A stretch of 64,000 bases of DNA, taken from NCBI GenBank assembly GCA_963790475.1, contig CAWBOS010000012.1, forward strand, positions 32,001 to 96,000, in the 5' to 3' direction. The position numbers and the translations under genes were made by a program. This document shows positions 20,616-39,221 of this stretch, piece by piece. This DNA comes from an uncultured delta proteobacterium. Lineage in GTDB: Bacteria; Desulfobacterota; RBG-13-43-22. Below the pieces are notes generated by a model. It was given only the letters and a program-made list of their open reading frames with translations. It was not told the origin of the DNA and did not search any database. How positions within the stretch are numbered: position 1 is the first letter of the stretch; the number at the start of each line of letters is the position of its first letter.

Positions 20616-21242
20616 ATGACAATGAACAACATTATCCTGATAGGTTACCGCTGTACGGGAAAAACCTCTGTCGGGAAACGGCTGGCTGAGAAACTGGAGC
20701 TCCCTTTTTACGACACGGATCCAATGATCACCGACCGTATTGGGAAATCGATCAAGGCCTGGGTGGAGGAAAAGGGATGGGATTCCTTTCGTCAGGAAGA
20801 AAAAGCGGTCATTAAAGAAATTGCCTCCCGGGAACCTGGTGTTATTTCCCTGGGAGGGGGCGCGGTGATGGATCCTGAAAACAGGGAAACATTAAGACCA
20901 ATGGGCTTGATCGTCTGGCTGACCGCCGATGTCGGCACCCTCTTGACCAGAATGAAAACCGATCCCCATACTATCGACAACCGCCCTCACCTGTCAGACA
21001 AGGATTGGGAAAATGAAACCCGGGAAATCCTGACCCGGCGATCGCCGATCTACCGGCAATCATCTGATTTTTCCATAGACACGGAAGGGAAAACGGTCGA
21101 ATCCATTGCCGAAGAACTGGTTGCTCTTGTCAAGAGACAAGGCATCGGGGGCAAAAAACTTGAGGCCACAAACCCAACAAACTCGATGAACACAATGAAC
21201 CGAACAGACCAAACTGACTGGAAAGACGAAACGACTAAATAA
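20616..21242 (+). CDS. aroK: Shikimate kinase
   Basis: GYRCTGKTS P-loop, FRQEE, LGGG, RP; C-terminal tail derived from 9-bp repeats. Confidence 0.93.
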   Translation: MTMNNIILIGYRCTGKTSVGKRLAEKLELPFYDTDPMITDRIGKSIKAWVEEKGWDSFRQEEKAVIKEIASREPGVISLGGGAVMDPENRETLRPMGLIVWLTADVGTLLTRMKTDPHTIDNRPHLSDKDWENETREILTRRSPIYRQSSDFSIDTEGKTVESIAEELVALVKRQGIGGKKLEATNPTNSMNTMNRTDQTDWKDETTK

Positions 21243-21283
21243 CCAAATAGACCAAACAGACATGAAAGGCCAGAGGAGCGATT

Positions 21284-22339
21284 ATGTCCGGCAATTCAAC
21301 AGGGGTTTTATTTAAGGTTACGACTTGGGGGGAATCTCACGGGCCGGGTTTGGGTGCGGTAGTGGAGGGGTGCCCGCCTTTGATCCCGTTGACCGAGGAA
21401 GACATTCAGAAAGATTTGAAAAGGAGAAAGCCCGGACAAATTCAAAGCGCTTCTTCCCGAAAGGAAGATGATCAGGTGGAGATCCTTTCCGGGGTCTTTG
21501 AAGGCCGGACCACCGGAACCCCCATTGCCCTGCTCATCCGCAATAAAGATGCCGATAGCTCCGCCTATGATGAACTGAAAGATATTTTCCGCCCCGGTCA
21601 TGGGGATCTGACCTATTATAAAAAATACGGGGTCAGGGATCACCGGGGAGGCGGCCGGGCTTCGGGAAGGGAAACGGCGGCCCGCGTAGCGGCCGGGGCC
21701 ATTGCCAAAAAAATCCTGGCCCGGGAAAATATTGAAGTCCTGGCTTATACCCTGGAATTAGGCGGCATCAATGCCGAAATAATTTCCCTTGAGGCCACTT
21801 CCCAAAACACCCTTAGCTGTCCCGATCCTCAGGCGGCCTTAAAAATGGAAGCAAAGTTACGAGAGACCGCCGAGAAAGGGGATTCGCTGGGAGGGATTGT
21901 GGAAATCCTGGTCCGTGGATGCCCTCCGGGTCTGGGGGAACCGGTCTTTGATAAAATGGACGCCGATCTGGCCAAGGCCTTGATGAGCATCGGATCGATC
22001 AAAGGGGTGGAAATCGGTGCCGGATTTAAGGCCGCCCGGATGACCGGGTCCGAGTGTAACGATCCCATCACCCCTGACTGCTTTTTAACCAACCATGCCG
22101 GCGGGATACTGGCCGGTATAACCAATGGGGATGATCTGGTTATCCGGGTGGCTTGCAAACCCATAGCTTCCATCAGGAAAGAGCAGAAAACCATCGATCT
22201 TTCAGGGAAGCCGGTCTCCTTAGCGATCAAAGGCCGACATGATGTTTCAGTCATACCCCGCATCATCCCCGTATGCGAAGCCATGGTCAGCCTGGTGTTG
22301 GTCGATCACCTGTTAAGACAAAAGGCGATAGTCCAATGA
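21284..22339 (+). CDS. aroC: Chorismate synthase
   Basis: GESHG, RPGHGD, RGGGRASGRETA, GRHD. Confidence 0.97.
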   Translation: MSGNSTGVLFKVTTWGESHGPGLGAVVEGCPPLIPLTEEDIQKDLKRRKPGQIQSASSRKEDDQVEILSGVFEGRTTGTPIALLIRNKDADSSAYDELKDIFRPGHGDLTYYKKYGVRDHRGGGRASGRETAARVAAGAIAKKILARENIEVLAYTLELGGINAEIISLEATSQNTLSCPDPQAALKMEAKLRETAEKGDSLGGIVEILVRGCPPGLGEPVFDKMDADLAKALMSIGSIKGVEIGAGFKAARMTGSECNDPITPDCFLTNHAGGILAGITNGDDLVIRVACKPIASIRKEQKTIDLSGKPVSLAIKGRHDVSVIPRIIPVCEAMVSLVLVDHLLRQKAIVQ

Positions 22340-23109
22340 AAAAACATCAGATCGGTATTATCGGCGGGACCGGCGGTATAGGAAAATGGTTTGCCCGTTT
22401 TTTTCAGAATGAAGGTTTCAAGGTCCAGATCTCCGGAAGAAAAACCGGACTGGACATTCCCACCTTGGCCCGGGAATGTCCCATCGTGATCGTCAGTGTT
22501 CCCATCAAGGTGACCTGCCAGGTAATTGAACAGGTAGGGCCTTTGATGCCGGCCGAATCCCTGTTGATGGACCTGACCTCTCTCAAGGAAGAACCGGTTA
22601 AAACCATGCTCAAATACTCTCGGTCCGAGGTCATCGGTCTGCACCCCCTGTTCGGCCCTGAAATTAAGGCCCTGACCGGACATAATATTGTCATCTGCCC
22701 GGCCAGGGGGCAGAAATGGCTCCCCCGGATAAAGGCTGTTTTTATAAAAAACCAAGCCCGGATTATCGAGACCACCCCTGAGCGACACGATGAATGGATG
22801 GCCCTGGTCCAGGTTTTGAATCATCTGAATTCCATCACCATGGGGCTGGCCCTGAAGCGGTCCGGTTTTGATCTAAAGGAACTCAATCCGGTGTCCACAC
22901 CGGCCTTCGATGCCAAGATGGATATTCTTAAAAAAATCTTTGGACCTAATTCAGGACTTTACGCCCAAATCATCACCCAGAACCCCCATATCGACCGGGT
23001 CTTCAAGGATTATCAGCAAAGTCTTTCTGAACTGAAAAAATGGATTGACCGGAAGGATAGCGAAGGGCTCCAAAAACGGATTGAGGGCACAAAACTTTTT
23101 TCACAGTAA
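22336..23109 (+). CDS. tyrA: Prephenate/arogenate dehydrogenase
   Basis: IGIIGGTGGIG, DLTSLK, HPLFGP, HDEWMALVQ; ATG overlaps the aroC stop. Confidence 0.9.
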   Translation: MKKHQIGIIGGTGGIGKWFARFFQNEGFKVQISGRKTGLDIPTLARECPIVIVSVPIKVTCQVIEQVGPLMPAESLLMDLTSLKEEPVKTMLKYSRSEVIGLHPLFGPEIKALTGHNIVICPARGQKWLPRIKAVFIKNQARIIETTPERHDEWMALVQVLNHLNSITMGLALKRSGFDLKELNPVSTPAFDAKMDILKKIFGPNSGLYAQIITQNPHIDRVFKDYQQSLSELKKWIDRKDSEGLQKRIEGTKLFSQ

Positions 23110-23170
23110 ACGATCATGCTTCTGGAAGCGACACGAAGCATGAAAATTTTGTATAACCGGTGAGTTAAGT

Positions 23171-23262
23171 CGTCATTCCGGTCCCGCATTAGGTGCGGGA
23201 TAGACTCCAGCCGGAATCTAGGCTGAAAAACCTCTGGATGCCGGATCGAATCCGGCATGACG
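23171..23262. repeat. REP-like nested palindromic element
   Basis: CGTCATTCCGG..TCCCGCA/TGCGGGA..CCGGAAT..ATGCCGGAT-CGA-ATCCGGCAT-GACG. Confidence 0.75.
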
Positions 23263-23321
23263 GATAAACAACAAGCCTGGAGATTAATCCAGGAGATTTT
23301 CGTATAAAAAGGTAATAACTT

Positions 23322-24350
23322 ATGAGCTTCAATTATATTCGAGAAGTATCGACTCCTCAGGAGATCCTGGCGGCCATCCCGCTCTCTCAGGACCTGTCTT
23401 TGATCAAGAAAGCGCGGGATCAGGAGATCATGGCCGTCTTTACCAGGGAAAGCAAAAAGTTTCTGCTCATCATCGGCCCCTGTTCGGCCCACGATGAAGA
23501 TGCGGTTTGCGATTACATAACCAGGTTGGCCCGGGTGCAGGCTGAGGTCCAGGACAGGATCATCATTATCCCGCGAATCTATACCAATAAGCCCCGCACC
23601 AATGGTATGGGATACAAAGGGATGGTTCATCAGCCGGATCCGCTAAAAGCGCCTAATATTGTCGAGGGGATTCAGGCCATCAGGAGAATGCACATCCGCG
23701 CCCTCCGGGAATCAAACCTTCCCGCGGCCGACGAAATGCTCTATCCCGGAAACTACCCTTATCTCGAAGACGTCTTAAGTTATGTGGCCGTGGGGGCCCG
23801 TTCGGTGGAGAATCAGGCCCATCGTTTGACCTGCAGCGGTCTTGAAGTACCAGTGGGCATGAAAAATCCGACTTCCGGAGAACTCGAAGTGACTCTTAAT
23901 TCCATTCAGGCCTCTCAAGCCTCCCATGTATTCAACTATAATGGTTGGGAAGTCAAGACCACCGGCAATCCCCTGACCCATGCCGTACTCCGTGGTGCGG
24001 TGGATCACTCTAAACTGGCAGTCCCCAATTACCATTTCGAGGATCTGAACCTTTTTGCCAAGGCCTACCAGAAGAGGGAACTGCTCAACCCGACGATTAT
24101 CGTGGACACCAACCATGCCAATTCCAACAAAAAATTCGCCGAACAACCCCGCATCGCCAAAGAGGTCTTGCACAGTCGCCGTCACTCCACCCTGCTCAAG
24201 GACCTGGTTCGGGGCTTGATGATTGAGAGTTTTATTGAGGAAGGGTCGCAGCCGGCAACTGGCACCGTGTATGGAAAATCCATCACCGACCCCTGCCTGG
24301 GGTGGAAGGACAGCGAAAAGCTGATTCGTGATCTGGCCGGGATGTTGTAG
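23322..24350 (+). CDS. aroG: DAHP synthase class I-alpha
   Basis: IGPCSAH, KPRT, VGARS, GMKNPTSG, DTNHANS, GKSITDPCLGW. Confidence 0.9.
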   Translation: MSFNYIREVSTPQEILAAIPLSQDLSLIKKARDQEIMAVFTRESKKFLLIIGPCSAHDEDAVCDYITRLARVQAEVQDRIIIIPRIYTNKPRTNGMGYKGMVHQPDPLKAPNIVEGIQAIRRMHIRALRESNLPAADEMLYPGNYPYLEDVLSYVAVGARSVENQAHRLTCSGLEVPVGMKNPTSGELEVTLNSIQASQASHVFNYNGWEVKTTGNPLTHAVLRGAVDHSKLAVPNYHFEDLNLFAKAYQKRELLNPTIIVDTNHANSNKKFAEQPRIAKEVLHSRRHSTLLKDLVRGLMIESFIEEGSQPATGTVYGKSITDPCLGWKDSEKLIRDLAGML

Positions 24351-25455: not shown

Positions 25456-26844
25456 CTAATCTTTCTTGGGAACTTCTTTAAGTGCAGAATTAAATAATTT
25501 TAAAAAATCATCATCATTTAACTGCGTCATGTCTACGCCAACAAAGGATTCCGTACCGTTTAGGATGAAATTAGCAATATTGCCTTCTTTATTTGTAGGT
25601 GTATACCAAATTTGGTCACCTTCTTTTTGGATCAAAAGGTCGTGAAATTTTTTCCATTGATGTTTTGGTAAATGATTATTCCTAAATATTGCTGTAATCT
25701 GACGAGCTGGATCATGTACAATTACAATAGCTTTTTTTCTTTCGTCATTCATGCGAGCGAGTATCCCACGTTGTGGAAATTTATCTAAAGGTTCTTTCTG
25801 ATAATAAATAAGAGCATAGTTCCCAGGAAGCTCACGGAGAGGGAGTTGTTTCTTCTGCATCTCGAAAAACGATTGTTGCGCTTGTATCATTGCCTCGAAG
25901 AGAAAACCCATTATAAAAGATACAACTAGTGGATGCCAAACCTGTTGGAGGGCAAACAGTATCCTTCTATGAGTGAAATTACTTTGTTTGCCATTTATTT
26001 CAAGAATATTAGGTCTGAGGATCATTTCCCTAACATAAACTGCTGCTTCTGGTTCGGTAGGATCAATAAAACCATTCTGTGTTAACTTTTCAGATTTTTT
26101 GAGGTACCGATTCCATTCCTGCTCCAAGGCATCAATAGCCTTTTGATTGCTAAAATTGTCGAATGAACTTATCGAGACACATACTGACATTAACACAGCT
26201 TCAATAATAGCCCTCTTCCATTGGGCATCCAAAGATTCTGAAATAAACCCTGGTTGGCGGAATTGCGCAACATGAAGATTTCTTACAATAGTGAAAATAT
26301 GGTCAAATGCTGCGCCTCCAATAGCATCAATTTCGTCAATTTCGCGACGTATCGGTTCTATCGCCTGAATACCAGGATTATCTATATGACATTCTAAATG
26401 TTCTTGAAAGACGATATCGCTTGCAGAGTTGGCGGTACGGGTCCCATGTCCCTTGTGCTCGTCATATACTTTTTTAAAATCTGGGTTGCTACTCATCCCG
26501 CCGATACCAATGAGAACCGCGCTAACAAGTCTAGGGTTTAAGTCGGAGGGTAATTCTTCTTGAGAACCTCTGATTACATGTTCTTCGTAGGCTGGTAAGT
26601 AATCTACTGGTAAATAACAAGCTCGCAGTATTAAATCCGCAAAATAATTATCAAGGCTAGGATTTTTTCGAGTGACGAACTTGGGGATAGGTCCGGGGGA
26701 CGTGTCATTGTCCCGCAATCCTAAGAATTCACGAAGGAGATTAGACGAAGCCAAGACTATATTCTCTACTATTGAAAATCCTTCATACACATCAGGCGTG
26801 AGGTCAGCTGGTTGAATTTGTTTCCCATCCAAGCGTCTATTCAT
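25456..26844 (-). CDS. Hypothetical protein, possibly a divergent MYG1/DHH-like phosphoesterase
   Basis: 462-aa ORF overlapping the upstream gene; PSLDNY and IGIGG...YDEH...SASDIV resemble MYG1/DHH motifs (weak). Confidence 0.5.
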   Translation of the reverse strand: MNRRLDGKQIQPADLTPDVYEGFSIVENIVLASSNLLREFLGLRDNDTSPGPIPKFVTRKNPSLDNYFADLILRACYLPVDYLPAYEEHVIRGSQEELPSDLNPRLVSAVLIGIGGMSSNPDFKKVYDEHKGHGTRTANSASDIVFQEHLECHIDNPGIQAIEPIRREIDEIDAIGGAAFDHIFTIVRNLHVAQFRQPGFISESLDAQWKRAIIEAVLMSVCVSISSFDNFSNQKAIDALEQEWNRYLKKSEKLTQNGFIDPTEPEAAVYVREMILRPNILEINGKQSNFTHRRILFALQQVWHPLVVSFIMGFLFEAMIQAQQSFFEMQKKQLPLRELPGNYALIYYQKEPLDKFPQRGILARMNDERKKAIVIVHDPARQITAIFRNNHLPKHQWKKFHDLLIQKEGDQIWYTPTNKEGNIANFILNGTESFVGVDMTQLNDDDFLKLFNSALKEVPKKD

Positions 26845-27706
26845 CTTTTTCTCCTTCTATATGTCCCGAGATAAGTCCCTTGGTTGTAGCCGCTTTAACG
26901 ACGGCTAGTGCAATGTCGTCCGAAAAATGGCGTAAATGCCGCTTAAAAACTGATCGACGAAATGCTTGTATCGTGGTATCTTCCCCCTTTTTATTGTGTC
27001 CGCAGGTGAATTCGTCCCGGAGGAAATCTTGAAAATCCTGTTTGCCCACCGGAGATGACAAGACGTCATTGATTCCATCACTCGCAATCCATAGGAATTT
27101 CAACGTTTCAATCTCCCCGCTAACATGGATGTCAACTTTTAGTTTCGGCGATCCATATTTCTCAAGTAATGATTGGTTAAAATATAGAGTGGGTGAGTTA
27201 TCAATGGGTGTTATACCATCGTCAATTCCGAAGCAGCCATCACCGAGGCCAAATACCCAGTACCGATTACGTACGACTGCAAGTCCCAGGATAGTAAATA
27301 GAAGTTTGTTAAGAATGAAATCACACCATTCTTTTGAAAGAAATGCCAGTCCTAAGCCTTTGCAGAACCTCTTAAAAAAAGTTATTGTCCTGCTGCCAGT
27401 AATTCGTAGGGCTTTTTCAAATTGAAGATCGTTAATATTGTCGCCATCACGCAATTCTTTTTCAAGAAAGTTCGCCCAACAATATGCCCCCAAAACAGCT
27501 CCAACTTGATTTTGTGTAAAACCAAAATCTGTAGTGCTGCATCCATCGCAGACTACTGCTACTTTCAAATTCGATGATTGGACTATGTGGCATGCGTCTT
27601 GACATCCAAGAGAAACCTCCTTGTGAAGCTTACCTTCCATAACAAAGGATCCAACAAGCAAGTTCGGACTCTCAGGAGCATATACGGAGTAGCTTGGTAT
27701 AGTCAT
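26837..27706 (-). CDS. PP2C-like phosphatase (TerY-P type)
   Basis: H....LGCQDA, VVCDGCS, GLGDG, IASDGI, SDDIALAV. Confidence 0.85.
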   Translation of the reverse strand: MTIPSYSVYAPESPNLLVGSFVMEGKLHKEVSLGCQDACHIVQSSNLKVAVVCDGCSTTDFGFTQNQVGAVLGAYCWANFLEKELRDGDNINDLQFEKALRITGSRTITFFKRFCKGLGLAFLSKEWCDFILNKLLFTILGLAVVRNRYWVFGLGDGCFGIDDGITPIDNSPTLYFNQSLLEKYGSPKLKVDIHVSGEIETLKFLWIASDGINDVLSSPVGKQDFQDFLRDEFTCGHNKKGEDTTIQAFRRSVFKRHLRHFSDDIALAVVKAATTKGLISGHIEGEKDE

Positions 27707-27732
27707 TTAAACCTCTTTTGCTGCCTTAATTC

Positions 27733-28824
27733 TCATGCAGAATACATCATGTCTAAGAGACGAATGCGTGCTTTATCGCGTTCTAATGTTTTCTTCCTTG
27801 CTCTCTCAATCATATCGTTCCAGAGTTCCTCCCAAAATCGTCTTTGACGATCATCTTGAATCAACCTAGCCATCAGGTTATCGGCTCTTTGGGTCCGCTG
27901 GAGAGCTTCTTCCCTTGGGAAATATGAATCCAACATGTCGACCAAAGGGACACGACCTGTTGGGTCTGATGAAAATATTTTTTTAAAATAAGCTTTAAGC
28001 TTAGGTTTACTCTCAAGCCATTTAGGGTTCCTTATATCAAACTTTGGGGGCTGGACCATAGGATCAAGCAATACTGCAGAATAATTATATGATCTAAATA
28101 CGTAAGGATCTTTGCGATATTTCGGGTGAATTCCTGCCCAAGGTGATACACCCATAAAGAGCTCAAAGGCGATGACAGCTAAAGCCCACCAATCGGTCAG
28201 AGCTGAAAACTCTTCATTAGGGCCAACTGCGTCTGGAACGCGATCCCTGATGCGCGGATCGAGATATTGAATCGTGAAACTTTCACCTGGATAATTAGGA
28301 ATTGAACAGGAGTCAAAATCGATTAAATATGGTCTAAGGTTTGAAACAAGGATATTTTGAGGTTTAAGATCGCACATGAAGACACGATTAACGTGCAGGC
28401 TTCCCAAAGCGTCGTTTATCTCATATATGAAATTGGCAATCATCTGATCAAATAGGGGTTCTTCGTTAGGAGCAATTGAAGGCTTCCAACTCATGGAATT
28501 AATCGGTTTCGCATCAGGTAGGTACTTCATAATAAAGCCAACAGCTTGGTTAGTTGGTAACCCTTCAAGGAACACCATCTGCAGCGGAGCCACGACCAGT
28601 TCGTGGAAATTCCTCTTCTGTCCGCAAAGAGTACTCAGTTTCTCACTCATTGAGGAATTAATGGGATAGTCGGGGTACATCTTGACGGCAAACTGATTAT
28701 TCAACTTAAAAACTTCGCCATCCTTACCTCCATCTATGTAATTTGAATTGGTGAGCGTGTAACGCTGTCCGTCAGCGTCAAAAATGGTGATGCCATCGAA
28801 TTTGGATTGGTAAGTAATGCTCAT
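27733..28824 (-). CDS. Ser/Thr protein kinase-like protein (TerY-P type)
   Basis: GGKDGEVF, AVKMY, H...VFMCDLKPQNILV, IDFDS, TDWWALAVIAFELFMGVSPW. Confidence 0.88.
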   Translation of the reverse strand: MSITYQSKFDGITIFDADGQRYTLTNSNYIDGGKDGEVFKLNNQFAVKMYPDYPINSSMSEKLSTLCGQKRNFHELVVAPLQMVFLEGLPTNQAVGFIMKYLPDAKPINSMSWKPSIAPNEEPLFDQMIANFIYEINDALGSLHVNRVFMCDLKPQNILVSNLRPYLIDFDSCSIPNYPGESFTIQYLDPRIRDRVPDAVGPNEEFSALTDWWALAVIAFELFMGVSPWAGIHPKYRKDPYVFRSYNYSAVLLDPMVQPPKFDIRNPKWLESKPKLKAYFKKIFSSDPTGRVPLVDMLDSYFPREEALQRTQRADNLMARLIQDDRQRRFWEELWNDMIERARKKTLERDKARIRLLDMMYSA

Positions 28825-29564
28825 TGTCTATCCTTAATTACATGACTAGAGATCAAATCCATTGCCTTGCGAATTTCTTTAGGGTCGGCGTTTCCTTCGA
28901 TGACGTCCTCAATACCGATTGATTTACCTATCGCTTTAAAATCAAAATCGCCAAGCCCAACAAGAGAGATTCGATGAATAATGCCAGTTTCCAATACGAA
29001 CTCAATGACATTTCTCAATGTTTCTGCTCTTGTCTTGCTATGTTCGTCTTTTCCATCTGTAATTACCGCGACATGAGCCATTACTTGTTGACCCAATTCC
29101 TCCGCTCCGAGTAGTATTGGTGATAACATCGCCAGTGCATGCACAATGGTATCGTATAATGCGGTTCCCCCGTCAGGAACATAGTTCTGGTCATCAAGAA
29201 GTCTAACCTTGGGATGAGCCTGGCGGATGTTGGAAGGATCTCGAAATGGGGTCACATCTTGAAAGTACGGATCCTGGACTTCATGGTTGAAAAGAATTTG
29301 ACCAAAATAAATATTAAGGGCAGAGCTTGCGCCCAACAATGAATTAATGAGGTGGTGTTGCCCATCGATCATTCCAGCCTTAAGAGGTACCATTGACCCA
29401 GATCTATCCAACAGTAACACTAAGGGACGTACGGACACGCCTTCAAGGGGTTGAATATCTTGGGCCTTATCCCGGGCCAGTGTTTGGATAATTTCCGCTA
29501 TCTCTGGCTTCATCACCCCTAAAGATACTAATTGATCGAGCGCTTGTTTTTCTGAAACCGACAT
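28821..29564 (-). CDS. vWA domain protein (TerY-like)
   Basis: MIDAS motif LLLDRSGSM, GGTALYD, VITDG. Confidence 0.88.
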   Translation of the reverse strand: MSVSEKQALDQLVSLGVMKPEIAEIIQTLARDKAQDIQPLEGVSVRPLVLLLDRSGSMVPLKAGMIDGQHHLINSLLGASSALNIYFGQILFNHEVQDPYFQDVTPFRDPSNIRQAHPKVRLLDDQNYVPDGGTALYDTIVHALAMLSPILLGAEELGQQVMAHVAVITDGKDEHSKTRAETLRNVIEFVLETGIIHRISLVGLGDFDFKAIGKSIGIEDVIEGNADPKEIRKAMDLISSHVIKDRQ

Positions 29565-29574
29565 ATCTTCCTCC

Positions 29575-31473
29575 TTACAGCGTAAATCTTTCGTATCCTT
29601 TGCCTATAATATATCCATTCGCCGATTCTATCAGCCAATCCTCAGAGCCAAATCCATAAAATGTGGATAGGATCTTATTAGTTTCGGTATTACGGATTTC
29701 TATTTTTCTGTCAAAATCTGCAATTGCTAAAAAGTTATCTCCAATGAGTGTCAGGGATAGAGGCTCGTTTGATAGAGATTCTTGATAACAAATTATTGGA
29801 AAAATAATGTCTCGGACGATAAGTGTATTATCCTCTAGACACAACCAAATTTTTCTGGTAGCTTCGTGGTAAATGGCGCAAACAATACCTTTTGCAAATG
29901 AAATGTTGTTCAGTAATCGACCTTCTGTGCATCGGCTAATGACCAATAAACCATCTTCACCGGAAGATATATAGGCAGGCCGCGTTGGCAATCCAATCAG
30001 GGTGGAAACCGGACCACGGTGATCATTTCTTGAATTAATAAGTTTTTTGGATGCTATTTCCCAAACAAATGTCTTACCCAATTTGCTACCAGCGATGACA
30101 TAACGATTGCTATCACAAAATGATCCTGTTGTAAGATTTTCATTGCAGTTGAATCTTCGTACCAGTTCCCCATTATCTGTCCGTCTAATCTGTAAAAATC
30201 CTTCCAATGTCACTATAAGCAGAAGATTCCCATTTGTCGAAAACTGAACCTGTATCAGATTTGGATATGAATTGAATTCTATTAGGTTATATGTTCCAAC
30301 TGAATCTATATGCCAGCATTCGATTCCCTGAGATAGACCAAGGAGAAGTTCCCATCCTTTTGATGTTTTCCGCATCGCACTCGAAATGAAGTATCCATCG
30401 GTGGTGCGCGGTGTGATAGCAATATGCTGTGACAATTCATTTATTGCCCAGAGATGTACCGTTTGGTTTGCATGAAGTGTTGCCAGCCAATATCCGTCAG
30501 GCGAAGCGCAGATAGTGGGTGCGTAAGATGCCTCTTTTAGTAGACCAGTTAGGTCAAGCCGTATTGGTGTTGATTTTTGTTTTTGAACCTGATCGATTTG
30601 TTCATTTTGTTTTAATGAAATGCTTTCGGAGGTTTTATAACTAGCATACTTTTTGCGAATCCTTTCTGCCTGCTCTGATGTGATAGTGTTGAACCCGGTA
30701 CTTACCCGTATCCCTTCATTAGTCGCACCTTTAATGGTTTGTTTGATTTCGATATTTAATTCCTCTGCTAACTCATAAATTCTTATCTTTTCCCGATGTT
30801 TAATCGACTGAGGTGATTTAGGTCCTGTTAATAAAGGTTTTGATTTTGACCCTTGATCGCTAGTTAAGGGTGGAGTTCTTCTTGAATGATGTATCTTTTT
30901 AATATAATTTTGTTGATCTTGCTGTATCTTGAGATCCCTTCGAAATTTATTTTTAAGATTGATACCTACAGGAAGTTTTCTTGGTTTACCAATTTTGGGC
31001 TTTTTTATTAGAGGTTGTTCCGTTAGTTTCCGATAAAGATCTTTATAGCCTGTATTGCTGTTTAAATCGTAGTACTGAAAAGGTTTAAGAGGTCTGGGAA
31101 CAAATTTCGTATTATTTGGATCAAAAATAATTGGAATAAACTTTTCATTTATTGAATCATTATCGTAGATTTCTTGGTAGGTTAGTAATGATTCAAAACG
31201 ACCACCTTTCCCCTTTCCAGGAGTTTCATCACCTCCGGCACGTTTATCGTATGTTTCTGTGCAAATCACCAAAACATAGTCAGAATTACGGATTTGTTGC
31301 TCCATCCACCGTGGCCACCCCTGTCGAGGAGATTCCTCATATTGATCCAGATTACAATCAAGACCGTCTCGACAGAGACGATCAGCAAGTGCAAGGACGC
31401 TTCTATCGTGCTCTTTGGACTCATGACAGTAACTTATAAAGACCTTCAAATGTTTCTCCAAATTAGTCACCAT
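29575..31473 (-). CDS. SEFIR/TIR + IF2_N-like + WD40 beta-propeller protein
   Basis: KVFISYCHES..LADRL..DQYE..GWPRWMEQQI..DYVLVICTETY; KIRIYELAEELNI..; repeated WD-like units in the C-terminal half. Confidence 0.8.
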   Translation of the reverse strand: MVTNLEKHLKVFISYCHESKEHDRSVLALADRLCRDGLDCNLDQYEESPRQGWPRWMEQQIRNSDYVLVICTETYDKRAGGDETPGKGKGGRFESLLTYQEIYDNDSINEKFIPIIFDPNNTKFVPRPLKPFQYYDLNSNTGYKDLYRKLTEQPLIKKPKIGKPRKLPVGINLKNKFRRDLKIQQDQQNYIKKIHHSRRTPPLTSDQGSKSKPLLTGPKSPQSIKHREKIRIYELAEELNIEIKQTIKGATNEGIRVSTGFNTITSEQAERIRKKYASYKTSESISLKQNEQIDQVQKQKSTPIRLDLTGLLKEASYAPTICASPDGYWLATLHANQTVHLWAINELSQHIAITPRTTDGYFISSAMRKTSKGWELLLGLSQGIECWHIDSVGTYNLIEFNSYPNLIQVQFSTNGNLLLIVTLEGFLQIRRTDNGELVRRFNCNENLTTGSFCDSNRYVIAGSKLGKTFVWEIASKKLINSRNDHRGPVSTLIGLPTRPAYISSGEDGLLVISRCTEGRLLNNISFAKGIVCAIYHEATRKIWLCLEDNTLIVRDIIFPIICYQESLSNEPLSLTLIGDNFLAIADFDRKIEIRNTETNKILSTFYGFGSEDWLIESANGYIIGKGYERFTL

Positions 31474-31586: not shown

Positions 31587-33188
31587 TCATTCTTTCATGG
31601 AATGGACCGCATCAAGATATGCCCGTCCAGCAGGTAGTATTTCATATCGAACTTTGTCGCCCTTGGCGTTTATCCGCCTAGCCAACTCCGGGAAATCCTT
31701 TAGAACCCAATTCACATGTCTGGCACTAATCCGTTCTACATGTTCCGCGTCATTGACGGGAACATCCCGTTCAGTCAGTTTGGCGATGTCAGGACACGCT
31801 GCTGGTCCAGAGATTTGATCCAATGCTCGCAGACATCTGAACATACGCGCCTCTTGGAGAACTTTTCGCTTAAGTTTTATGTTTGATACTCCGGGGAGCT
31901 TACTAAACGCATCCCCCAATAATGCATTTATCTGAGTATGGTAGTCTTCAATCGTTCCCTCATTCTCTATCTTGATATCTGCCAAATCTTGTGCAACCGG
32001 TAACAGTCCAAAACGCCATTGTTGCCTATCGTGCTCTTGGAAATCAAGTAGTGTCTTAATATCCTCGATGCGGCCTCGCTGCAAGTGTCTTTCAAACCTT
32101 GTCCTTTCACTTACATCAATGAAAACAACCTTAGTAGAGTTTGGAAATTGGCTCCTAATATATTGTAACTCTTCAATAAGTCTAAAGCCAGTTATAATTG
32201 TATTGTTACACAAATCCTTGCCATACAAACCGACAATGTACCTAGCTATTATGTCTGGCCCCTTCGCATGGAAAATCTCTTTTGCCAGGTAAAGCGGAGT
32301 AGGCGCTTTTATCCCGTTTTCCTCAGCTATCAGTCGCATGATGTTACTAGCTTCGATGAATCGATATGGGTAGTGAGATGAGACATACTCTCCAAATGTG
32401 GTTTTGCCTGCACATAGCTTCCCGACAATCAGGTACAAGGAAACATCCTCTTTAAACAGGCTGAGATTTGTTGTCAGTTTGGGCTGCTTCATAAAGTACG
32501 ATCCGCTTAAATTGAGTACTGCCGCAAATTCCTCAAGTCTATCAGTAAGAGAGATTAAAGATTTCACGCGAAAGTCATATTCCAGTGATTCCTCAAAAGA
32601 CATTTCACCAAGGCGTTTTTTTGCTCCATTTGGTACGAACCAGCCATTGAAGGAATCAGGCCTAAGCCAAGGATACTGGTCCGACTTATTAAAATTGGGG
32701 GGCGTTTCTGCAACATGACCGCTGGTTTCGCCATGGATGAATACAGGTCTTTTCAAATTGGGCACATGTAAGGCAATATCCGAGTACACAGTAGCGGTTC
32801 GATCGTTCCCATGCTGCCGTAACACGGCATCGATTTCCTTGAAGCTGGTCCTTGCAAACCACTCCTTAATTTTTAGGCCAGGTACAATCTCGTCGGCCGA
32901 ACATAATGCATCAATCTTGACAGAAGTATCCTCAACAAAGAACATCGAGTTAACCCCTAACCGATATTTGATCTCGTCGATGGCGCGGGATAAGAGTTGT
33001 TCTTGGCCCAGGTTATAGTCCTCATGATAAGGATCTTGTGAGCTCTTAAAATGCCGCAATATAAGGCCAACCTTTTGGAAGATCAACCGCGCTTGAATGA
33101 ATTTATCGATACTTGATGTATAGAATCCTATCCCAAGTCGCTTAGGGGAGTTGATGAATAATTCTCTAATCTTAGGTTTAGACATCAT
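31587..33188 (-). CDS. HAM1/ITPase-like pyrophosphatase + P-loop NMP-kinase-like + winged-helix fusion
   Basis: FYTSSIDK, VEDTSVKIDAL, PGLKIKEW, RLGEMS; GKLCAGKTT, GFR..EE, ADIKIENEGT; C-terminal ..VRYEILPAGRAYL. Confidence 0.8.
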   Translation of the reverse strand: MMSKPKIRELFINSPKRLGIGFYTSSIDKFIQARLIFQKVGLILRHFKSSQDPYHEDYNLGQEQLLSRAIDEIKYRLGVNSMFFVEDTSVKIDALCSADEIVPGLKIKEWFARTSFKEIDAVLRQHGNDRTATVYSDIALHVPNLKRPVFIHGETSGHVAETPPNFNKSDQYPWLRPDSFNGWFVPNGAKKRLGEMSFEESLEYDFRVKSLISLTDRLEEFAAVLNLSGSYFMKQPKLTTNLSLFKEDVSLYLIVGKLCAGKTTFGEYVSSHYPYRFIEASNIMRLIAEENGIKAPTPLYLAKEIFHAKGPDIIARYIVGLYGKDLCNNTIITGFRLIEELQYIRSQFPNSTKVVFIDVSERTRFERHLQRGRIEDIKTLLDFQEHDRQQWRFGLLPVAQDLADIKIENEGTIEDYHTQINALLGDAFSKLPGVSNIKLKRKVLQEARMFRCLRALDQISGPAACPDIAKLTERDVPVNDAEHVERISARHVNWVLKDFPELARRINAKGDKVRYEILPAGRAYLDAVHSMKE

Positions 33189-34174
33189 AGGTTCTCTTCG
33201 GTTTCATGGCCGGTATTTCGACCCTTGCAGACCCCGAGGTATTTGGCTTGAGTGGTCTCTTGTAGCGTCTTGTTAATCTTCTCCATCATAGCTGATGCGT
33301 CGGCTGGAGCTATGGCATAGATGAGAGGGCCCATACTACTCATGCCGGCTGCGACATGATCATGTTTGTTGAGGAGTTCCAGAAGAGATCTCACCTCTTT
33401 GCCTTGACCTTGGAGTTCTCGTTGCTTGAAGCCGGTTGTATGAACATCTACCATCGATTGTTTGAGTAGGCGAAGATCGCCATCCATAAAAGCCGGGATT
33501 ATCCCATGATAAACTGCTGCTAATACTCGAAATACCTCTTCTCCGGGAATAGGTGTATTTTGTTGAAAGAACATGATCTCATCATCACCCGTGTATATGC
33601 GGTTGTCCGATAAATAAAGATGGATCTGCCATTGTTCGGGGAATGGCAATCTAATGCTCACGGGTGGGGTCACGGAAGCTTGCCTGGCAGATGATGGTAC
33701 AAAGCCAATCTCTGTAGACTGGGGGTGCCCTAGGTCAACGATAATCCCCCCTTGAAAGAAGACGTTCACTCCTACACCGGAAGCTCCACCTCTGCGGCAA
33801 AGCTGCTTGATATCGTCTGGCAGCAGGGGGTTCCCAAGTAAAGCATTGCAGGCTGATCCGATGGCTAACAATAAGGCAGTTTTGCTGCCAAAGCCGACGT
33901 GTTGCGGTGGAAGGGCAAGGATGTGAACCGTGAACTTTGTGTGCAAAACAGTCGCGATTCTCTCGATGAGTGCATGCACGTCTGCCTCATCACGCTGATC
34001 GATCTTATCTTGGAGTGTCAGTTCATTAACGATTCCAAGACTAGACTCTACCTCTATCGGTAGTGCATCGAGGGAGAACCCGGCTCCGCCATATCGTCGA
34101 TGTGTGATGCCAGCGACATCGATGAGCGTGAGGTGAATTCTAGGAAAGGCTCTAACTATTACCTTTTGTTTCAT
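33185..34174 (-). CDS. Beta-ribofuranosylaminobenzene 5'-phosphate (beta-RFAP) synthase family, GHMP fold
   Basis: PRIHLTLID..RRYGGAG, PQHVGFGSKT, RGGASGVG..F.QGGIIVDLGH, GFKQRE, GMSSMGP. Confidence 0.85.
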   Translation of the reverse strand: MKQKVIVRAFPRIHLTLIDVAGITHRRYGGAGFSLDALPIEVESSLGIVNELTLQDKIDQRDEADVHALIERIATVLHTKFTVHILALPPQHVGFGSKTALLLAIGSACNALLGNPLLPDDIKQLCRRGGASGVGVNVFFQGGIIVDLGHPQSTEIGFVPSSARQASVTPPVSIRLPFPEQWQIHLYLSDNRIYTGDDEIMFFQQNTPIPGEEVFRVLAAVYHGIIPAFMDGDLRLLKQSMVDVHTTGFKQRELQGQGKEVRSLLELLNKHDHVAAGMSSMGPLIYAIAPADASAMMEKINKTLQETTQAKYLGVCKGRNTGHETEENL

Positions 34175-35000
34175 TGGATTCAAACCACTCAATAGGAACC
34201 GGCCGTGAAAATTCCGGATTGTTCCATATCCCATCGAAGTGATCTAATAGTCGTTTATAAAGGGTCCCTTGTTGATTCAACACAAACGTAGGAAAATTCC
34301 TGCTTACATCCCCGATAAGATACGGTCCCCAAAAGAGATTGTCATCGATACGAAAAATGTTGATCGACGGTAGACAGCGATATAGCTTGATTTCAAAACG
34401 GAAATCTCTATTCCTTAATAATTCGGCGCACCCTCGTATGAAAGAGTGCACATCCCGTCTTATATCACCAAGATCATTGTTCTCTTCCTTGTCGCGTTGA
34501 TCGGCAAAGGAGCATTTTGGACTGGGGAACTCCGGATCGAGGAGTAATATTCGAACATTGGCTCGAGCCGCCCACTTTGCGAAGTCATGATGGTAATCTT
34601 CATTAAAAGCTCGAAGCCCAAACCCCATTATATCGATAGCTTCTGACACATGGTCCAGTCGCGTATCATATTCTGCCTTGATTCGAACGGCCCTGCTCTC
34701 GAACGCTTCGATCAAACCAAACTTACGAATGATTTCCATCCGACGAGACTCATCTTGTGATAGCCAGACGTAGAGGAAAAGGACCCAGCCCGCGATTGCA
34801 GTGGCAATGATGGATCCACCGAGCGAGATAATTATCGTATTGCGGGTCGGGTCCCTTAAAGTACTTCCGGAAATCACCAACAATAGTCCAATTACCAAAA
34901 GCACAAAGTGAAGCGCAAGATATATCCAATGTGTTGCTTTGATTTTCCAGATGGCTCGTCTTATGAATCGTATTATATACATGGCGCTATTTTCTCTCAA
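34152..35000 (-). CDS. Two-TM protein with C-terminal PLD-like (DUF5919-like) domain
   Basis: Two hydrophobic helices, then IDIMG..VRILLLDP..IKLY..PSINIFRIDD.LFWGPY..HFDGIW; no HKD motif. Confidence 0.65.
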   Translation of the reverse strand: MRENSAMYIIRFIRRAIWKIKATHWIYLALHFVLLVIGLLLVISGSTLRDPTRNTIIISLGGSIIATAIAGWVLFLYVWLSQDESRRMEIIRKFGLIEAFESRAVRIKAEYDTRLDHVSEAIDIMGFGLRAFNEDYHHDFAKWAARANVRILLLDPEFPSPKCSFADQRDKEENNDLGDIRRDVHSFIRGCAELLRNRDFRFEIKLYRCLPSINIFRIDDNLFWGPYLIGDVSRNFPTFVLNQQGTLYKRLLDHFDGIWNNPEFSRPVPIEWFESNETKGNS

Positions 35001-36226
35001 ACCTTCTTGAAAACGACAATAGTCTCCCGCGAAGGTCTCCTGCCATAGATCCCCATCTGTTGAGCGCTATTGCCTCTGTAACGGACAGCGATCATGTTTT
35101 CGCAGGATAAAAATGTTTGTTCACCTATCGTAGCTGTTAGTTCATCGGTGAGGATTGCTTGGCCGCCATACTGAACATTCCCGACGACAAATCCTATTTT
35201 AGCGCCACCTCTGCAGACACGGGAGATTTCTTTCAAGACTAAGAATATATCTTGAAAATATCCCTCAAGCATTGTGGGAACCCTTGGGTCGTGGTCACTT
35301 TTCCGCATTTTCGACAGGGCTCTGGTCAACGGCAATGGTTGAATATAACCCTCAAGCGCAGGCCGTTGGGGATGCGACTCCGGGTGTGAATGAAAACTCT
35401 GATAGCGAAGTTCACGAGTTTGCTCCCAATCAAGAAAGCTGAACATCAACTCAACGCCGAAAACGCGAGTATAGTCATGACGGTTAGGATATGGCGGAGA
35501 GGTTATAACCGCCGAATAAGTGTAGTCATCATCAGGAAGATAACGTGCATCTGATTGTTTGACTTGCCAGAGAGAACGCCGAGGAAAATGAACATCTTTC
35601 AGATCTTCAAACATTCCCTCTATTTTGGCCTTGAGTGTCAGAGGAATTTCCCTGTAGCCTTTTCGATTTTCAACCCAACTCAACCAGCCGCCAGTGGCAA
35701 TAGCGTGGCTGAATTCAGGTAGAATAGACAGAAGCGCAAGACGGAAAAAATCCTTCTCCTTTTCCAAAGCCTTTATCTCGCTTATTTCGTGTGAGATAGT
35801 ATCAAAAGCCCCCAATAAACGACCGGGCAGGGCCTTTTTTACTAATACCGGGTAATCTTTGATTGGGCCGTTCCATGAAGATGGATCGAGTTTCTTTTCC
35901 AATGCACGCCATGAACGCCTTAAGAGTGTTTCGTCATAATTAGCTACCTTTACCTGGGATGTTAGGACAGACAATGGTGAAATGTCATGTCCCGTAGCAG
36001 GAATTCCCTTTTCCTTCGCGGAAAGGATTGTCGTCCCTGCCCCGGCAAATGGATCGAGAATTCGATCCTGTGAGGTCAAGTTCCATTCCTCAATAAGCCC
36101 ATGAACTAAATCACCGGTGAAACTATGAGGAAAAACATACCAGCGGTGTATAGGCTTCGCCTCAAGTGGTTTGGGCGTCACCCATTGCCTCCATTCCAAT
36201 CTCTCTTCTACAGCGTATCTACTCAT
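34997..36226 (-). CDS. Amino-DNA methyltransferase (probably N4-cytosine, motif I before motif IV)
   Basis: IHRW, ILDPFAGAGTT, VITSPPY, VVGN. Confidence 0.88.
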   Translation of the reverse strand: MSRYAVEERLEWRQWVTPKPLEAKPIHRWYVFPHSFTGDLVHGLIEEWNLTSQDRILDPFAGAGTTILSAKEKGIPATGHDISPLSVLTSQVKVANYDETLLRRSWRALEKKLDPSSWNGPIKDYPVLVKKALPGRLLGAFDTISHEISEIKALEKEKDFFRLALLSILPEFSHAIATGGWLSWVENRKGYREIPLTLKAKIEGMFEDLKDVHFPRRSLWQVKQSDARYLPDDDYTYSAVITSPPYPNRHDYTRVFGVELMFSFLDWEQTRELRYQSFHSHPESHPQRPALEGYIQPLPLTRALSKMRKSDHDPRVPTMLEGYFQDIFLVLKEISRVCRGGAKIGFVVGNVQYGGQAILTDELTATIGEQTFLSCENMIAVRYRGNSAQQMGIYGRRPSRETIVVFKKV

Positions 36227-36719: not shown

Positions 36720-37922
36720 TCACCGCTTCTTGGAAGAACTGTTGAATTTCAACAGAAAAAAAAGAAAAAAAAGGGCCGCCAGCCAGGCCGTAATCGAACC
36801 GTAATAAAAAGTGGCCTGGGGACCCAACCGGTCCCACAGAATCCCGCCGATGAGGCTGGCCGGGAGCAGGGATAGACCCACCAGGGTATTATACAAGCCG
36901 AACCCGGTGGCTTTAAACTCTGCCGGAACCAGGGTGGCCAAAAAGGCCTTCTGCACCCCTTCGGTCATGGCCATAAAGAGGCCATAAGCAATGAACAACA
37001 ACCAGATGTGAAGGGGGTGTCTAGCCCCGGCAAAACCCAGATAGATAAAGCCAAAAAAGATAAAGGCCATGAGGATGATCGGCTTGGGTCCGATGCGGTC
37101 GGAAACGATCCCGGCCGGAAATGAACCCAGGGCATAAACCCCATTAAAAACCAGATAAACCAGAGGAATGATCGCCAGGGGGATGCCCACATTCTGGGCC
37201 CGCAGGATCAGAAAGGCGTCACTCGAATTGCCTATTGAAAATAAGATAACGACCACAATAAAATATTTATAGGACCGGTCAAAACTGGACCAGCCCGGGT
37301 TGGGTTTCAGGGCCTGGTCGAGAGCACAGGCCCGGGTTTCCCGGATAAAGAAAATAATAGTCAGGACGGCGAGAATTCCGGGAATCATGGAAAGCCAAAA
37401 GACCAAACGATACTGTCCCTGGAAATAAGCCAACAGACCGAAGGCCACGGCCGGTCCGGCAACGGCCCCCAAGGTATCCATCCCTCGATGGAAACCGAAA
37501 GAACGCCCCAAGCGTTCCTCCTCACAGGACTCGGCGATCAAGGCATCTCTAGGGGCATTTCGAATTCCCTTTCCGAATCGATCCACAAAGCGCGAGGCCA
37601 GTACCTGACCCCAATTAGGGGCCGTGGCTATTAAAGGACGGCTCAAGGTTGAAATCCCATATCCGATAGCCATAAGCCATTTGCGATGACCCAGGCGATC
37701 CGAAAGCCAGCCGGAAAAAACCTTCAACAGGCTGGCCGTGCTCTCGGCAATGCCTTCAATTAAACCGATGACTGATTTCGGGACCCCAAGTACGGAAGAC
37801 AGGAACAAGGGTACCAGGGGATACACCATCTCCGAGCTGAAATCCATGAAAAAACTGACTACCCCGGAAAAAAAGATGTTGCGGTTCAGTCCGCAGATTT
37901 TGTCAGAAGAATTTTCTTCCAT
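36720..37922 (-). CDS. MFS transporter
   Basis: DFSSEM, GWLSDRLGHRK, DRFGKGIRNAPRDALIA; about 12 TM segments. Confidence 0.9.
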   Translation of the reverse strand: MEENSSDKICGLNRNIFFSGVVSFFMDFSSEMVYPLVPLFLSSVLGVPKSVIGLIEGIAESTASLLKVFSGWLSDRLGHRKWLMAIGYGISTLSRPLIATAPNWGQVLASRFVDRFGKGIRNAPRDALIAESCEEERLGRSFGFHRGMDTLGAVAGPAVAFGLLAYFQGQYRLVFWLSMIPGILAVLTIIFFIRETRACALDQALKPNPGWSSFDRSYKYFIVVVILFSIGNSSDAFLILRAQNVGIPLAIIPLVYLVFNGVYALGSFPAGIVSDRIGPKPIILMAFIFFGFIYLGFAGARHPLHIWLLFIAYGLFMAMTEGVQKAFLATLVPAEFKATGFGLYNTLVGLSLLPASLIGGILWDRLGPQATFYYGSITAWLAALFFLFFLLKFNSSSKKR

Positions 37923-39221
37923 TATTTTATTTTCACCCAAAGCAAGCGGGCCGTTTCAGAACTGATGTTTTTCCATTCCCAGGGCATTTCCGAAGTCAGA
38001 AAGATCACCTCGCCGGAATGAAGGGTATAAATCTCTTTGGCCAGTTTGACTCGAAGCTCTCCAGACAGCAGATATCCCATCTCTTCACCTTTATGGACAA
38101 AGAAATGGGAAGAAAGGGTTTGAAAAGGAGGAATTTCAATCAAGTAAGGTTCGGCTTTGGTCTCTATATCAACCGGCGTCAGTAATTTGCCCGAAATACT
38201 CCCCTCCGGAAGCTCCGGGAATTTTACAGCTACTGCTTCCTGGGGGGTGAATACAATCCGGCTTTTGTTACCGCTTTTTTCTTGAAAGAAGGAGCTTACT
38301 TCAACTGAGAGGATCTCAGCCATCTTTAATAATCCGGGCAAGGAGGGATAAATCATATTGCTTTCCACCTGGGAGATGGTGCTGGGAGTCACCCCCACCA
38401 GCTGAGCCAGCTCTGTTTGGGACAGGCCTTTTTTCAGACGAAGTTCTTTGACCCGCTGTCCCAGGTCTATCCCCATGCCGATGCGTTTTTCCGCATCAAA
38501 AGAAACGGTCTTGTCTTTTGACCCAATAAGGGTGCGGCTTGTGTAAATTTTCCAGATCCCGCTTTTCGGCTTTAAGAATGGTCAGGGAGGTGGTTCCCCT
38601 TTTAACGGATAGATCAATAGCCACCTGGGCAATCTGGTTGATTTGGGCCCTAAAACGAGTGGTGTGGGCCTTTTTTTCCATGATCCAGTAGGCCACGGTA
38701 TTCAACTCATAAAGACGGGGGCAGGAATGGGAATAAAATTGGAGGGCCTGTTCCTCTCCCCCCCAAAGCTCAGCCATTCCGGTCAGGCTTTCAAAAACCA
38801 GACGAACGTCGCCTTTCATAGGGGCATGAAGACCGTAAAGCTTCTCCACGACGCGGTCCGTTTGCCGTGGATCTTCCACCCGGACAATCGAACAGGACGT
38901 TTCTGATCCCGATGATTCATAAAATTTCAAAAAAACCGGAGAACCGGCCCCTTTCCCAAAGGTGAAGCAGTCCAGGATGGTCAGGAGAGGATTTTCCGAA
39001 AGGGGACCCAACTTTTCCAGGAGATTACGGGGTGAGCGGTCAAAGGTCACATAAATAACCGGCTTGTCTTGGTTCTGGGAGATTTGGATAAAATTCAAAC
39101 AAAACACCGAGGCCAGGCTCCCGGCATCATCATGCCAGACAACATTATCTCCGATATAGAGCCCATCTAATAAAGAGTCCAGTTGGCCGACGCCCGAAGA
39201 AATCCGGATTTTTTCTACCAT
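37922..39221 (-). CDS. RecA/KaiC-like + XRE HTH + cupin transcriptional regulator, split by a frameshift near 38516-38519
   Basis: Removing one A from the AAAA run fuses ORFs 38496-39221 and 37922-38476 (..WVKDKTVSFDAEKRIGMGIDLG..); HTH SQTELA..STISQVE; cupin HKGEE. Confidence 0.8.

Follow-up and report, generated by a model that had tools for sequence, protein, structure and literature searches.

The stretch of DNA analysed here (the window; 64,000 nucleotides from the genome of an uncultured delta proteobacterium) carries on its minus strand a gene, at 31587..33188, whose 533-residue product joins a HAM1 domain of inosine triphosphatase (ITPase) fold to a nucleotide kinase domain. This open reading frame (ORF), which matches HAM1 and AAA_17/18 in Pfam, is the last gene of a conserved three-gene cassette. 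The cassette begins with a gene for a protein with transmembrane helices and a phospholipase D (PLD) fold and continues with a gene related to ForT and beta-RFAP synthase, all on the same strand. We found that the HAM1 domain keeps the catalytic residues of the ITPases, and that residues of its base pocket are replaced by others that are themselves conserved across a family of relatives.

The protein is built in the order HAM1, AdkA-like P-loop kinase and C-terminal domain. The HAM1 domain occupies residues ~1-235 (32484..33188, minus strand), as judged from PF01725, a fold model and Foldseek; the Pfam match itself covers residues 22-214 (E 9e-10, 39.2 bits against a cut-off of 22.5), and the span 32530-33188 that the preliminary description of this gene had singled out, residues 1-219, is this domain. 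HAM1 is also matched in 32 of 32 relatives. P-loop kinase families match at residues ~250-380 in Pfam, and comparison of the family profile with the PDB, together with the invariant columns, places the kinase domain at residues ~250-428 (31905..32441, minus strand). A search of solved structures with the single sequence found the kinase domain only, and the ITPase PH1917 was reached with the family profile. The profile of the 32 relatives matches the AdkA-like kinase SSO1041 (3lw7/3h0k) at E 6e-20 and, more weakly, UMP and adenylate kinases (1uky, AK1); its invariant columns include an intact Walker A motif (G256..G261-K262-T) and the conserved arginines of an Arg-rich lid. The C-terminal domain (residues ~440-533; 31590..31871, minus strand) is possibly a winged helix. 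The last ~95 residues of the window protein match no Pfam family, a Pfam search of the 32 relatives at E <= 1 gives weak helix-turn-helix matches in one relative each (HTH_IclR 0.052, HTH_20 0.056), and the Atlas scores a WHD family at 0.82, which the tool itself rates as a lead only. Of the pyrophosphatase, kinase and winged helix-turn-helix that the preliminary description had placed in one chain, the first two are borne out as domains and the third has these weak leads. In one relative of 724 residues (P0168), the place that the C-terminal domain usually takes after HAM1 and the kinase is filled by a complete adenylate kinase domain, lid included, and this extra, true adenylate kinase domain suggests a phosphorylation relay.

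The variant belongs to a distinct clade. A HAM1-domain profile searched against 1.84 billion representatives retrieved 418 proteins at E <= 0.001, including 180 at E <= 1e-30, and because most of the 418 are 520-560 residues long, fusion to the kinase is the rule in the clade. A word-index search gave 375 full-length relatives at E <= 0.001; among the best 120 of these, the named entries span many phyla and bear the label 'non-canonical purine NTP pyrophosphatase' (NTP, nucleoside triphosphate) or 'dephospho-CoA kinase'. The window protein has no match in the phage collection and four, at 29-32% identity, in the plasmid collection. A sister group (P0209-P0268; ~150-168 bits) has the same length and architecture, and reads FN(K/R)WF and A..DFR where the window protein reads FNGWF and S..DFR.

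The preliminary description had set SFNGWF in the place of the FGW/YDPIF motif of canonical enzymes, and SLEYDFR in that of the K..ISHR signature. These two strings and the three others that it named are all present in the translation of 31587-33188 (minus strand), and the register is right, because a HMMER alignment, an hhalign alignment and the fold match agree on it. With the profile of 32 family members, HMMER aligns FGYDPIF of the archaeal ITPase PH1917 with (e)(t)FNGWF, and its KNALSHR with S..(y)DFR; in the hhalign comparison with 30 canonical RdgBs, YDPVF falls on FNGWF and KNHISHR on SLEYDFR (probability 74.5%, E 2.7e-5, 182 columns). The 30 canonical HAM1 genes were taken from genomes of the same phylum by Pfam search, not by motif, and an ORF containing both G[YWF]DP and [ST]HR is present in each of the 30 loci. 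An AlphaFold model of residues 1-240, built from 24 sequences (pLDDT 86.6, pTM 0.85), has ITPases as its best Foldseek matches, namely PH1917, Mj0226, human ITPA and Plasmodium Ham1, with E 1e-12 and TMt of 0.83-0.86 to PH1917 and Mj0226 and 0.74-0.75 to human ITPA. KomB and E. coli RdgB rank lower in this list, which includes KomBC chains, and Maf proteins lower still. The base-pocket motif is preceded by a family-specific insertion of ~9 residues that contains PWL (32664..32672, minus strand; residues 173-175), with W174 and L175 in 139 of 139 sequences and P173 in 136 of 139. Since this insertion forms a gap in both alignments and is placed differently by HMMER and hhalign, the counterpart of the first Phe of FGYDP, taken here to be the GTP-excluding Phe149 of the human enzyme (GTP, guanosine triphosphate), cannot be placed.

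Individual residues were compared in the numbering of this genome's own RdgB, with canonical counts from the 30 RdgBs and family counts from 150 representatives clustered at 50% identity plus the window protein, gaps set aside. The catalytic core is kept, as the preliminary description had claimed. By hhalign, Lys12 (30 of 30 RdgBs) aligns to K29, present in 127 of 127 family members; Glu41 (30/30) aligns to E56, the Mg-site Glu (133/134); and Asp68-Asp69 (28/30 and 30/30) align to E86-D87 (146/146 and 145/146). The last pair lies in EDTS (32922..32933, minus strand; residues 86-89), which aligns to the catalytic DDSG and has D87 at the catalytic Asp position. Also kept are Arg114 (29/30), as R130 (137/147), and Arg181 of SHR (30/30), as R207 (134/134). 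Two of the strings that had been called retained are so only in part. In TSSIDK (33102..33119, minus strand; residues 24-29), T24 and K29 are canonical; the canonical Asn9 (30/30) is Ser in the window, and position 26 is divided in the family between N (72) and S (54 of 126). The Glu three residues after the Lys (Glu15, 30/30) is Gln32 in the window, and position 32 holds Q in 77, H in 47, N in 4 and E in none of 128 sequences. In PGLKIKEW (32859..32882, minus strand; residues 103-110), PG alone is canonical; by hhalign, the canonical Ser85 and Arg87 (30/30 each) align to I107 and E109, and K108 and W110 are invariants specific to the family.

SFNGWF (32637..32654, minus strand; residues 179-184) replaces the canonical GYDP[VLI]F, with F180 for Tyr154 (29/30 in RdgB, 135/138 in the family), N181 for Asp155 (30/30, 109/138), G, K, S or R at position 182 for Pro156 (30/30), and W183 for Val/Leu/Ile157 (30/30, 134/138). 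SLEYDFR (32568..32588, minus strand; residues 201-207) replaces K-N-x-I-S-H-R and keeps the Arg alone: position 201, Lys175 in RdgB (30/30), is S in 81 and A in 54 sequences (135/135), Ser179 (30/30) is D205 (129/134), and His180 (30/30) is F206 (129 of about 134). These replacements are more than chance, because they are near-invariant among the 150 representatives. A further canonical residue, Lys53 (30/30), falls at position 68, and the R68 of the window was considered as its kept counterpart and rejected, the position being variable across the family (R 26, E 20, K 17, S 16 and others). Thus, the specificity residues are rewired, as had been proposed, in the sense that they are replaced and conserved in the family, but the pocket is not wholly rewired, the Arg of SHR having been kept as R207.

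In human ITPase, according to the accessible text of a review (PMC5075207), the specificity pocket has SHR (176-178) as its signature; Arg178, close enough to O6 and N7 for hydrogen bonding, is the residue that matters most for discrimination, Phe149 keeps GTP out, Glu22 orients Arg178, and K172A has changed selectivity. The accessible text of a second study names Glu44, Asp72, Arg178 and F149 as crucial (PMC9016069). The human-to-motif numbering was derived from SHR = 176-178, Lys172 and Trp151 as they appear in these portions of the two papers (PMC5075207, PMC9016069). By position, the window counterparts are D205-F206-R207 for SHR, Q32 for Glu22 and S201 for Lys172, with E56 and D87 kept. 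From that spacing and the motif itself, we take Phe149 to be the first F of the FGW motif. The pocket is thus rebuilt around the retained Arg, likely for a different base that would still offer this Arg an acceptor, and the preliminary description may be right that the ligand is not ITP or XTP (inosine and xanthosine triphosphate), although by sequence alone ITP stays a candidate.

To describe the genetic setting, we used 32 loci from named genomes and counted cassette genes by tblastn with the window's neighbour proteins; neighbourhood clustering had merged the first two genes through one fused ORF. The order, PLD-fold gene, ForT-like gene and HAM1-kinase gene last, is conserved. The ForT-like gene lies directly upstream of the HAM1-kinase gene in 30 of the 32 loci, both misses starting at a contig end, and the PLD-fold gene lies upstream of the ForT-like gene in 28, all four misses being cut by contig ends; every locus with enough sequence carries the cassette. 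No conserved partners beyond the two cassette genes and methyltransferases were found in the 32 loci. In the window, the cassette is preceded by a DNA methyltransferase gene, and each of the four genes shares a few bases with the next (36226-34997, 35000-34152, 34234-33185 and 33188-31587). The same four-gene order occurs on plasmid p2 of Rhizobium bangladeshense (L064, 4244-8641), where the HAM1-kinase is 30% identical to the window protein and the annotations read DNA adenine methylase, hypothetical protein, beta-RFAP synthase family protein and non-canonical purine NTP pyrophosphatase.

The ForT/beta-RFAP-synthase-like gene (33185..34234, minus strand; GHMP fold), whose stop overlaps the start of the HAM1-kinase gene by 4 bases, scores 186.6 bits against TIGR00144 (cut-off 113.5) and 197.5 bits against NF040726, the equivalog of true beta-RFAP synthases, where the cut-off is 328. 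It matches the ForT structure 6yqq at E 1.5e-27. The residues by which ForT contacts phosphoribosyl pyrophosphate (PRPP), listed in the accessible part of the structural report as Arg19, the His99-Ser104 turn, Thr106, Arg135 and Ser139 (PMC8183095), align to R32, H112-S117, T119, R148 and S152. The same part describes ForT-type enzymes as converting PRPP, together with an aromatic carboxylic acid, into a C-nucleotide, CO2 and pyrophosphate (PPi) (PMC8183095). By this homology, the gene product should be a PRPP-dependent riboside-5'-phosphate synthase, and its position directly upstream, with the PRPP-binding residues intact, agrees with the earlier suggestion that the HAM1 domain serves a dedicated non-canonical nucleotide.

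The first cassette gene (34152..35000, minus strand) encodes two transmembrane helices, a long helix and a PLD-fold domain without the HKD motif. Its model (pLDDT 86.9) matches TrmBL2/TrmB, vaccinia F13, PLD3, Nuc and FAM83 in Foldseek at E 1e-7 to 1e-3, and no His or Lys is invariant among 20 aligned sequences. The protein is no HKD enzyme and may serve as a membrane-anchored module for ligand binding. No paper linking a beta-RFAP/ForT-like synthase with HAM1, or describing the cassette, was found in a literature search outside which lay supplements and most subscription journals.

The methyltransferase gene of the window (34997..36226, minus strand) encodes a type II DNA methyltransferase (PADLOC MTase_II, 3.1e-60) and overlaps the first cassette gene by 4 bases. 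A DNA methyltransferase adjoins the cassette, on either side, in 13 of the 32 loci, as it does in the window and in plasmid L064; most are Dam-like, and other families occur too. It is an accessory part, since different methyltransferase families occupy this position in other loci. PADLOC also finds matches in the flanks of 18 of the 32 loci, to type I and IIG restriction, Shedu SduA, AbiEii, UzuA, IetS and PDC candidates, in a scan of ORFs of at least 150 residues lying fully inside the locus (209 of the 390 called), and integrase-like ORFs are present in 6 of the 32.

Taken together, we propose with moderate confidence that the HAM1 domain would be a competent pyrophosphatase with a rebuilt pocket, fused to a kinase, and that the protein would set the phosphorylation state of a nucleotide made by the cassette. 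The substrate of the HAM1 domain is probably a non-canonical, C-linked nucleotide made by the neighbouring gene. In this scheme, the ForT-like enzyme, to judge from its homology and conserved PRPP contacts, would join PRPP and a common aromatic acid into a C-linked riboside 5'-phosphate. The kinase domain, with its profile of nucleoside monophosphate (NMP) kinase type, intact P-loop and lid arginines, would drive this nucleotide toward the di- or triphosphate, and the HAM1 domain, with its kept catalytic residues and rebuilt pocket, would cut the triphosphate back to the monophosphate (NTP -> NMP + PPi). The fusion would thereby set the phosphorylation state of the cassette's nucleotide instead of clearing ITP and XTP, its HAM1 pocket presumably having been rebuilt and then fixed by selection. 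More speculatively, the balance would be regulated, possibly via the C-terminal domain, and the membrane protein with its PLD fold and no HKD motif would likely act as receiver or effector. Having both kinase and pyrophosphatase in a single chain fits the idea, already voiced in the preliminary description, of a switch rather than house-cleaning.

Several observations weigh against this proposal. The Lys53 position is variable and the canonical Ser85 and Arg87 are lost, and given these changes catalysis may be altered. The SHR Arg, the reader of the 6-keto group and N7 in the accessible text on human ITPase (PMC5075207), is retained in all members (R207, 134/134), and because of this retention a 6-keto purine-like compound, ITP included, is a possible substrate. 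The counterpart of the GTP-excluding Phe149 is not placeable from the two alignments, which put the insertion differently, and the hhalign probability is no higher than 74.5%. If the kinase and the pyrophosphatase both act on one nucleotide, they would run a futile cycle unless regulated. As for the defence setting, 14 of the 32 loci have no PADLOC match in their flanks, and the PADLOC thresholds differed between loci (1e-12 for L001-L017, 1e-25 for L018-L032). PADLOC has no model for the three core genes, to which we give little weight because PADLOC predates Kongming, the defence system of KomB.

The likeness of the neighbouring gene to ForT (E 1.5e-27) could also mean that the cassette is a biosynthetic or self-resistance module for a metabolite of C-nucleoside type, in which the HAM1 domain would detoxify the triphosphate of the product in the producer; ForT and PyfQ both act in C-nucleoside antibiotic biosynthesis, as the accessible part of the ForT report states (PMC8183095). 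However, the conserved core consists of three genes, none of which would build a special aromatic acid, and the surroundings of the cassette also speak against it: DNA methyltransferases of several families in 13 of the 32 loci, restriction, Shedu, AbiE, Uzume and Iet-type genes in the flanks, and integrases in 6 loci. We consider such a module unlikely.

A second possibility is that the HAM1 domain is a non-catalytic nucleotide sensor, like KomB of Kongming, that would control the fused kinase or the membrane protein once a signal nucleotide has bound. HAM1 domains can be receptors of defence signals, as KomB shows: in the accessible part of the Kongming report, KomB-type HAM1s are sensors of deoxyinosine triphosphate (dITP) bound to a SIR2 effector (10.1101/2024.12.20.629578). 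The presence of KomBC chains among the Foldseek matches and the lack of conservation of the canonical Lys53, Ser85 and Arg87 speak for a sensor as well. In KomB-type proteins, however, the same part of that report describes the catalytic Asp as changed to His (KomB His65) and the nucleotide-binding residues as kept (10.1101/2024.12.20.629578), and the window family does the reverse, with the Asp kept (D87, 145/146) and the binding residues changed. Nor is there a SIR2 domain, such as that of KomB's associate KomC, in any of the 17 neighbouring ORFs of the window scanned with Pfam. A dead sensor is decidedly unlikely on these grounds.

Third, the protein could, in line with the label 'non-canonical purine NTP pyrophosphatase' given to relatives, be a house-cleaning pyrophosphatase for ITP and XTP or for purine NTPs more broadly, with the pocket reshaped by lineage drift and the kinase fusion tying it to nucleotide salvage. 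The HAM1 fold and the catalytic residues are kept, as is the SHR Arg, the main 6-keto reader. Yet near-invariance over 150 diverse representatives argues that the replacements are not drift, and house-cleaning is already covered in this organism, because a canonical rdgB with every canonical motif lies on another contig of the genome (C10, 1938650-1939213). This RdgB scores 221 bits where the window HAM1 domain scores 42; against the RdgB equivalog TIGR00042 the window protein reaches 23.3 bits, well below the cut-off of 145.35, and it departs from the RdgB/ITPA pocket signature, FG[YW]DP reading (S)FNGW and K...SHR reading S...DFR. Moreover, the gene is patchy: in a sample of 41 genomes from across the phylum, HAM1 matches occur in 39 and the variant in one, this genome, and not in the same-genus genome of that sample. 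It is also always accompanied by the ForT-like and PLD-fold genes, and we regard a house-cleaning role as quite improbable.

Last, it is very unlikely that the cassette serves DNA modification by supplying a modified nucleotide, the methyltransferase belonging to a modification-restriction pair and the HAM1 domain editing the modified deoxynucleotide triphosphate pool, since for all the methyltransferases adjacent in 13 of the 32 loci, in the window and in plasmid L064, and the PLD fold that the first cassette protein shares with Nuc-type nucleases, the cassette has no conserved polymerase, transglycosylase or DNA-insertion enzyme, the PLD-fold protein is membrane-anchored and has no conserved His or Lys, and the methyltransferase is absent from more than half of the loci.

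Returning to our proposal that the fused protein sets the phosphorylation state of a cassette-made nucleotide, the frequent adjacency of a DNA methyltransferase and the defence-island setting would suggest an anti-phage role. In one extension, which we offer tentatively and rate as doubtful, the cassette would be an undescribed anti-phage system acting through an aryl or heteroaryl nucleotide, C-linked and derived from PRPP. The kinase and HAM1 domains would toggle this nucleotide between mono- and triphosphate, perhaps in response to DNA that the C-terminal domain reads, methylation being the mark of self; one of the phosphorylation states would then activate the membrane effector or poison phage polymerases. 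The HAM1 domain is a new variant within HAM1, and the cassette, judged from its context alone, may be a new system.

The cassette lies inside a stretch of the window, at 24-36 kb, with a G+C content of 0.40-0.46, compared with ~0.48-0.53 on both sides. Genes of aromatic amino-acid biosynthesis (20616-24350; shikimate kinase, chorismate synthase, prephenate dehydrogenase and DAHP synthase) flank this low-G+C stretch, and no tRNA was found in the window, which leaves no tRNA-linked island boundary there. On the same strand as the HAM1-kinase gene, and starting 113 bases downstream of it, is a bSEFIR gene (29575-31473, minus strand) for a protein of 632 residues with an N-terminal SEFIR/TIR domain, an IF2_N-like segment and WD40 repeats (PADLOC bSEFIR, 1.2e-57). 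It is followed by a run of four genes (25456-29564, minus strand) encoding a 247-residue protein with a weak vWA-like match, a Ser/Thr protein kinase, a PP2C phosphatase and a 462-residue protein without family; the run may form a module of its own, for signalling or conflict, within this low-G+C stretch. On the other side, beyond an MFS transporter gene, an HTH_3 + cupin regulator (37922-38476, minus strand) matches the HTH and control-protein models of PADLOC and has no evident link to the cassette.

HAM1/ITPase proteins have so far appeared as enzymes that clean out deaminated purine nucleotides and, with the description of Kongming, as dead dITP sensors. The family described here would add a third mode, in which a pyrophosphatase, apparently live, has its base pocket rebuilt and a kinase hard-wired to it, always beside a C-glycoside synthase gene. 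If its substrate is the product of the neighbouring gene, the cassette would be a compact route, present in many bacterial phyla, to a non-canonical C-nucleotide and its triphosphate, a chemistry otherwise known from the pathways of methanopterin and C-nucleoside antibiotics. Its ties to DNA methyltransferases and to defence islands put the cassette forward as a candidate, open to testing, for a new immune system based on nucleotides, and its three or four genes are small enough to be transferred to another host.

Compared with known systems, the HAM1 domain resembles RdgB, ITPA, PH1917 and Mj0226 in its fold (TMt 0.74-0.86), the conserved Lys, the Mg-site Glu, the acidic pair and the SHR Arg, and differs from them in replacing Glu15, Lys53, Ser85, Arg87, Tyr154, Asp155, Lys175, Ser179 and His180. 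RdgB and ITPA also lack its ~9-residue PWL insertion and its fusion to a kinase and a C-terminal domain, and RdgB is universal, whereas the window gene is accessory and patchy. The kinase domain resembles SSO1041 and other UPF0200 AdkA-like kinases, as well as UMP and adenylate kinases, in its profile match and its conserved P-loop and lid arginines; unlike SSO1041 and the UPF0200 kinases, it sits fused between the HAM1 and C-terminal domains. The ForT-like protein shares with ForT, PyfQ and beta-RFAP (RHP) synthase the TIGR00144 match above cut-off, the match to ForT and the conserved PRPP contacts, but falls below the cut-off for true synthases and is encoded outside any methanopterin or formycin cluster. 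With KomB, as far as the accessible part of the Kongming report describes it, the family shares the recruitment of a HAM1 domain beyond house-cleaning, a multi-gene cassette, nucleotide-metabolising partners and defence-island neighbours. In contrast to the adenosine deaminase and SIR2 partners given for KomB in that part, the partners of the window family are a ForT-like synthase and a transmembrane PLD-fold protein.

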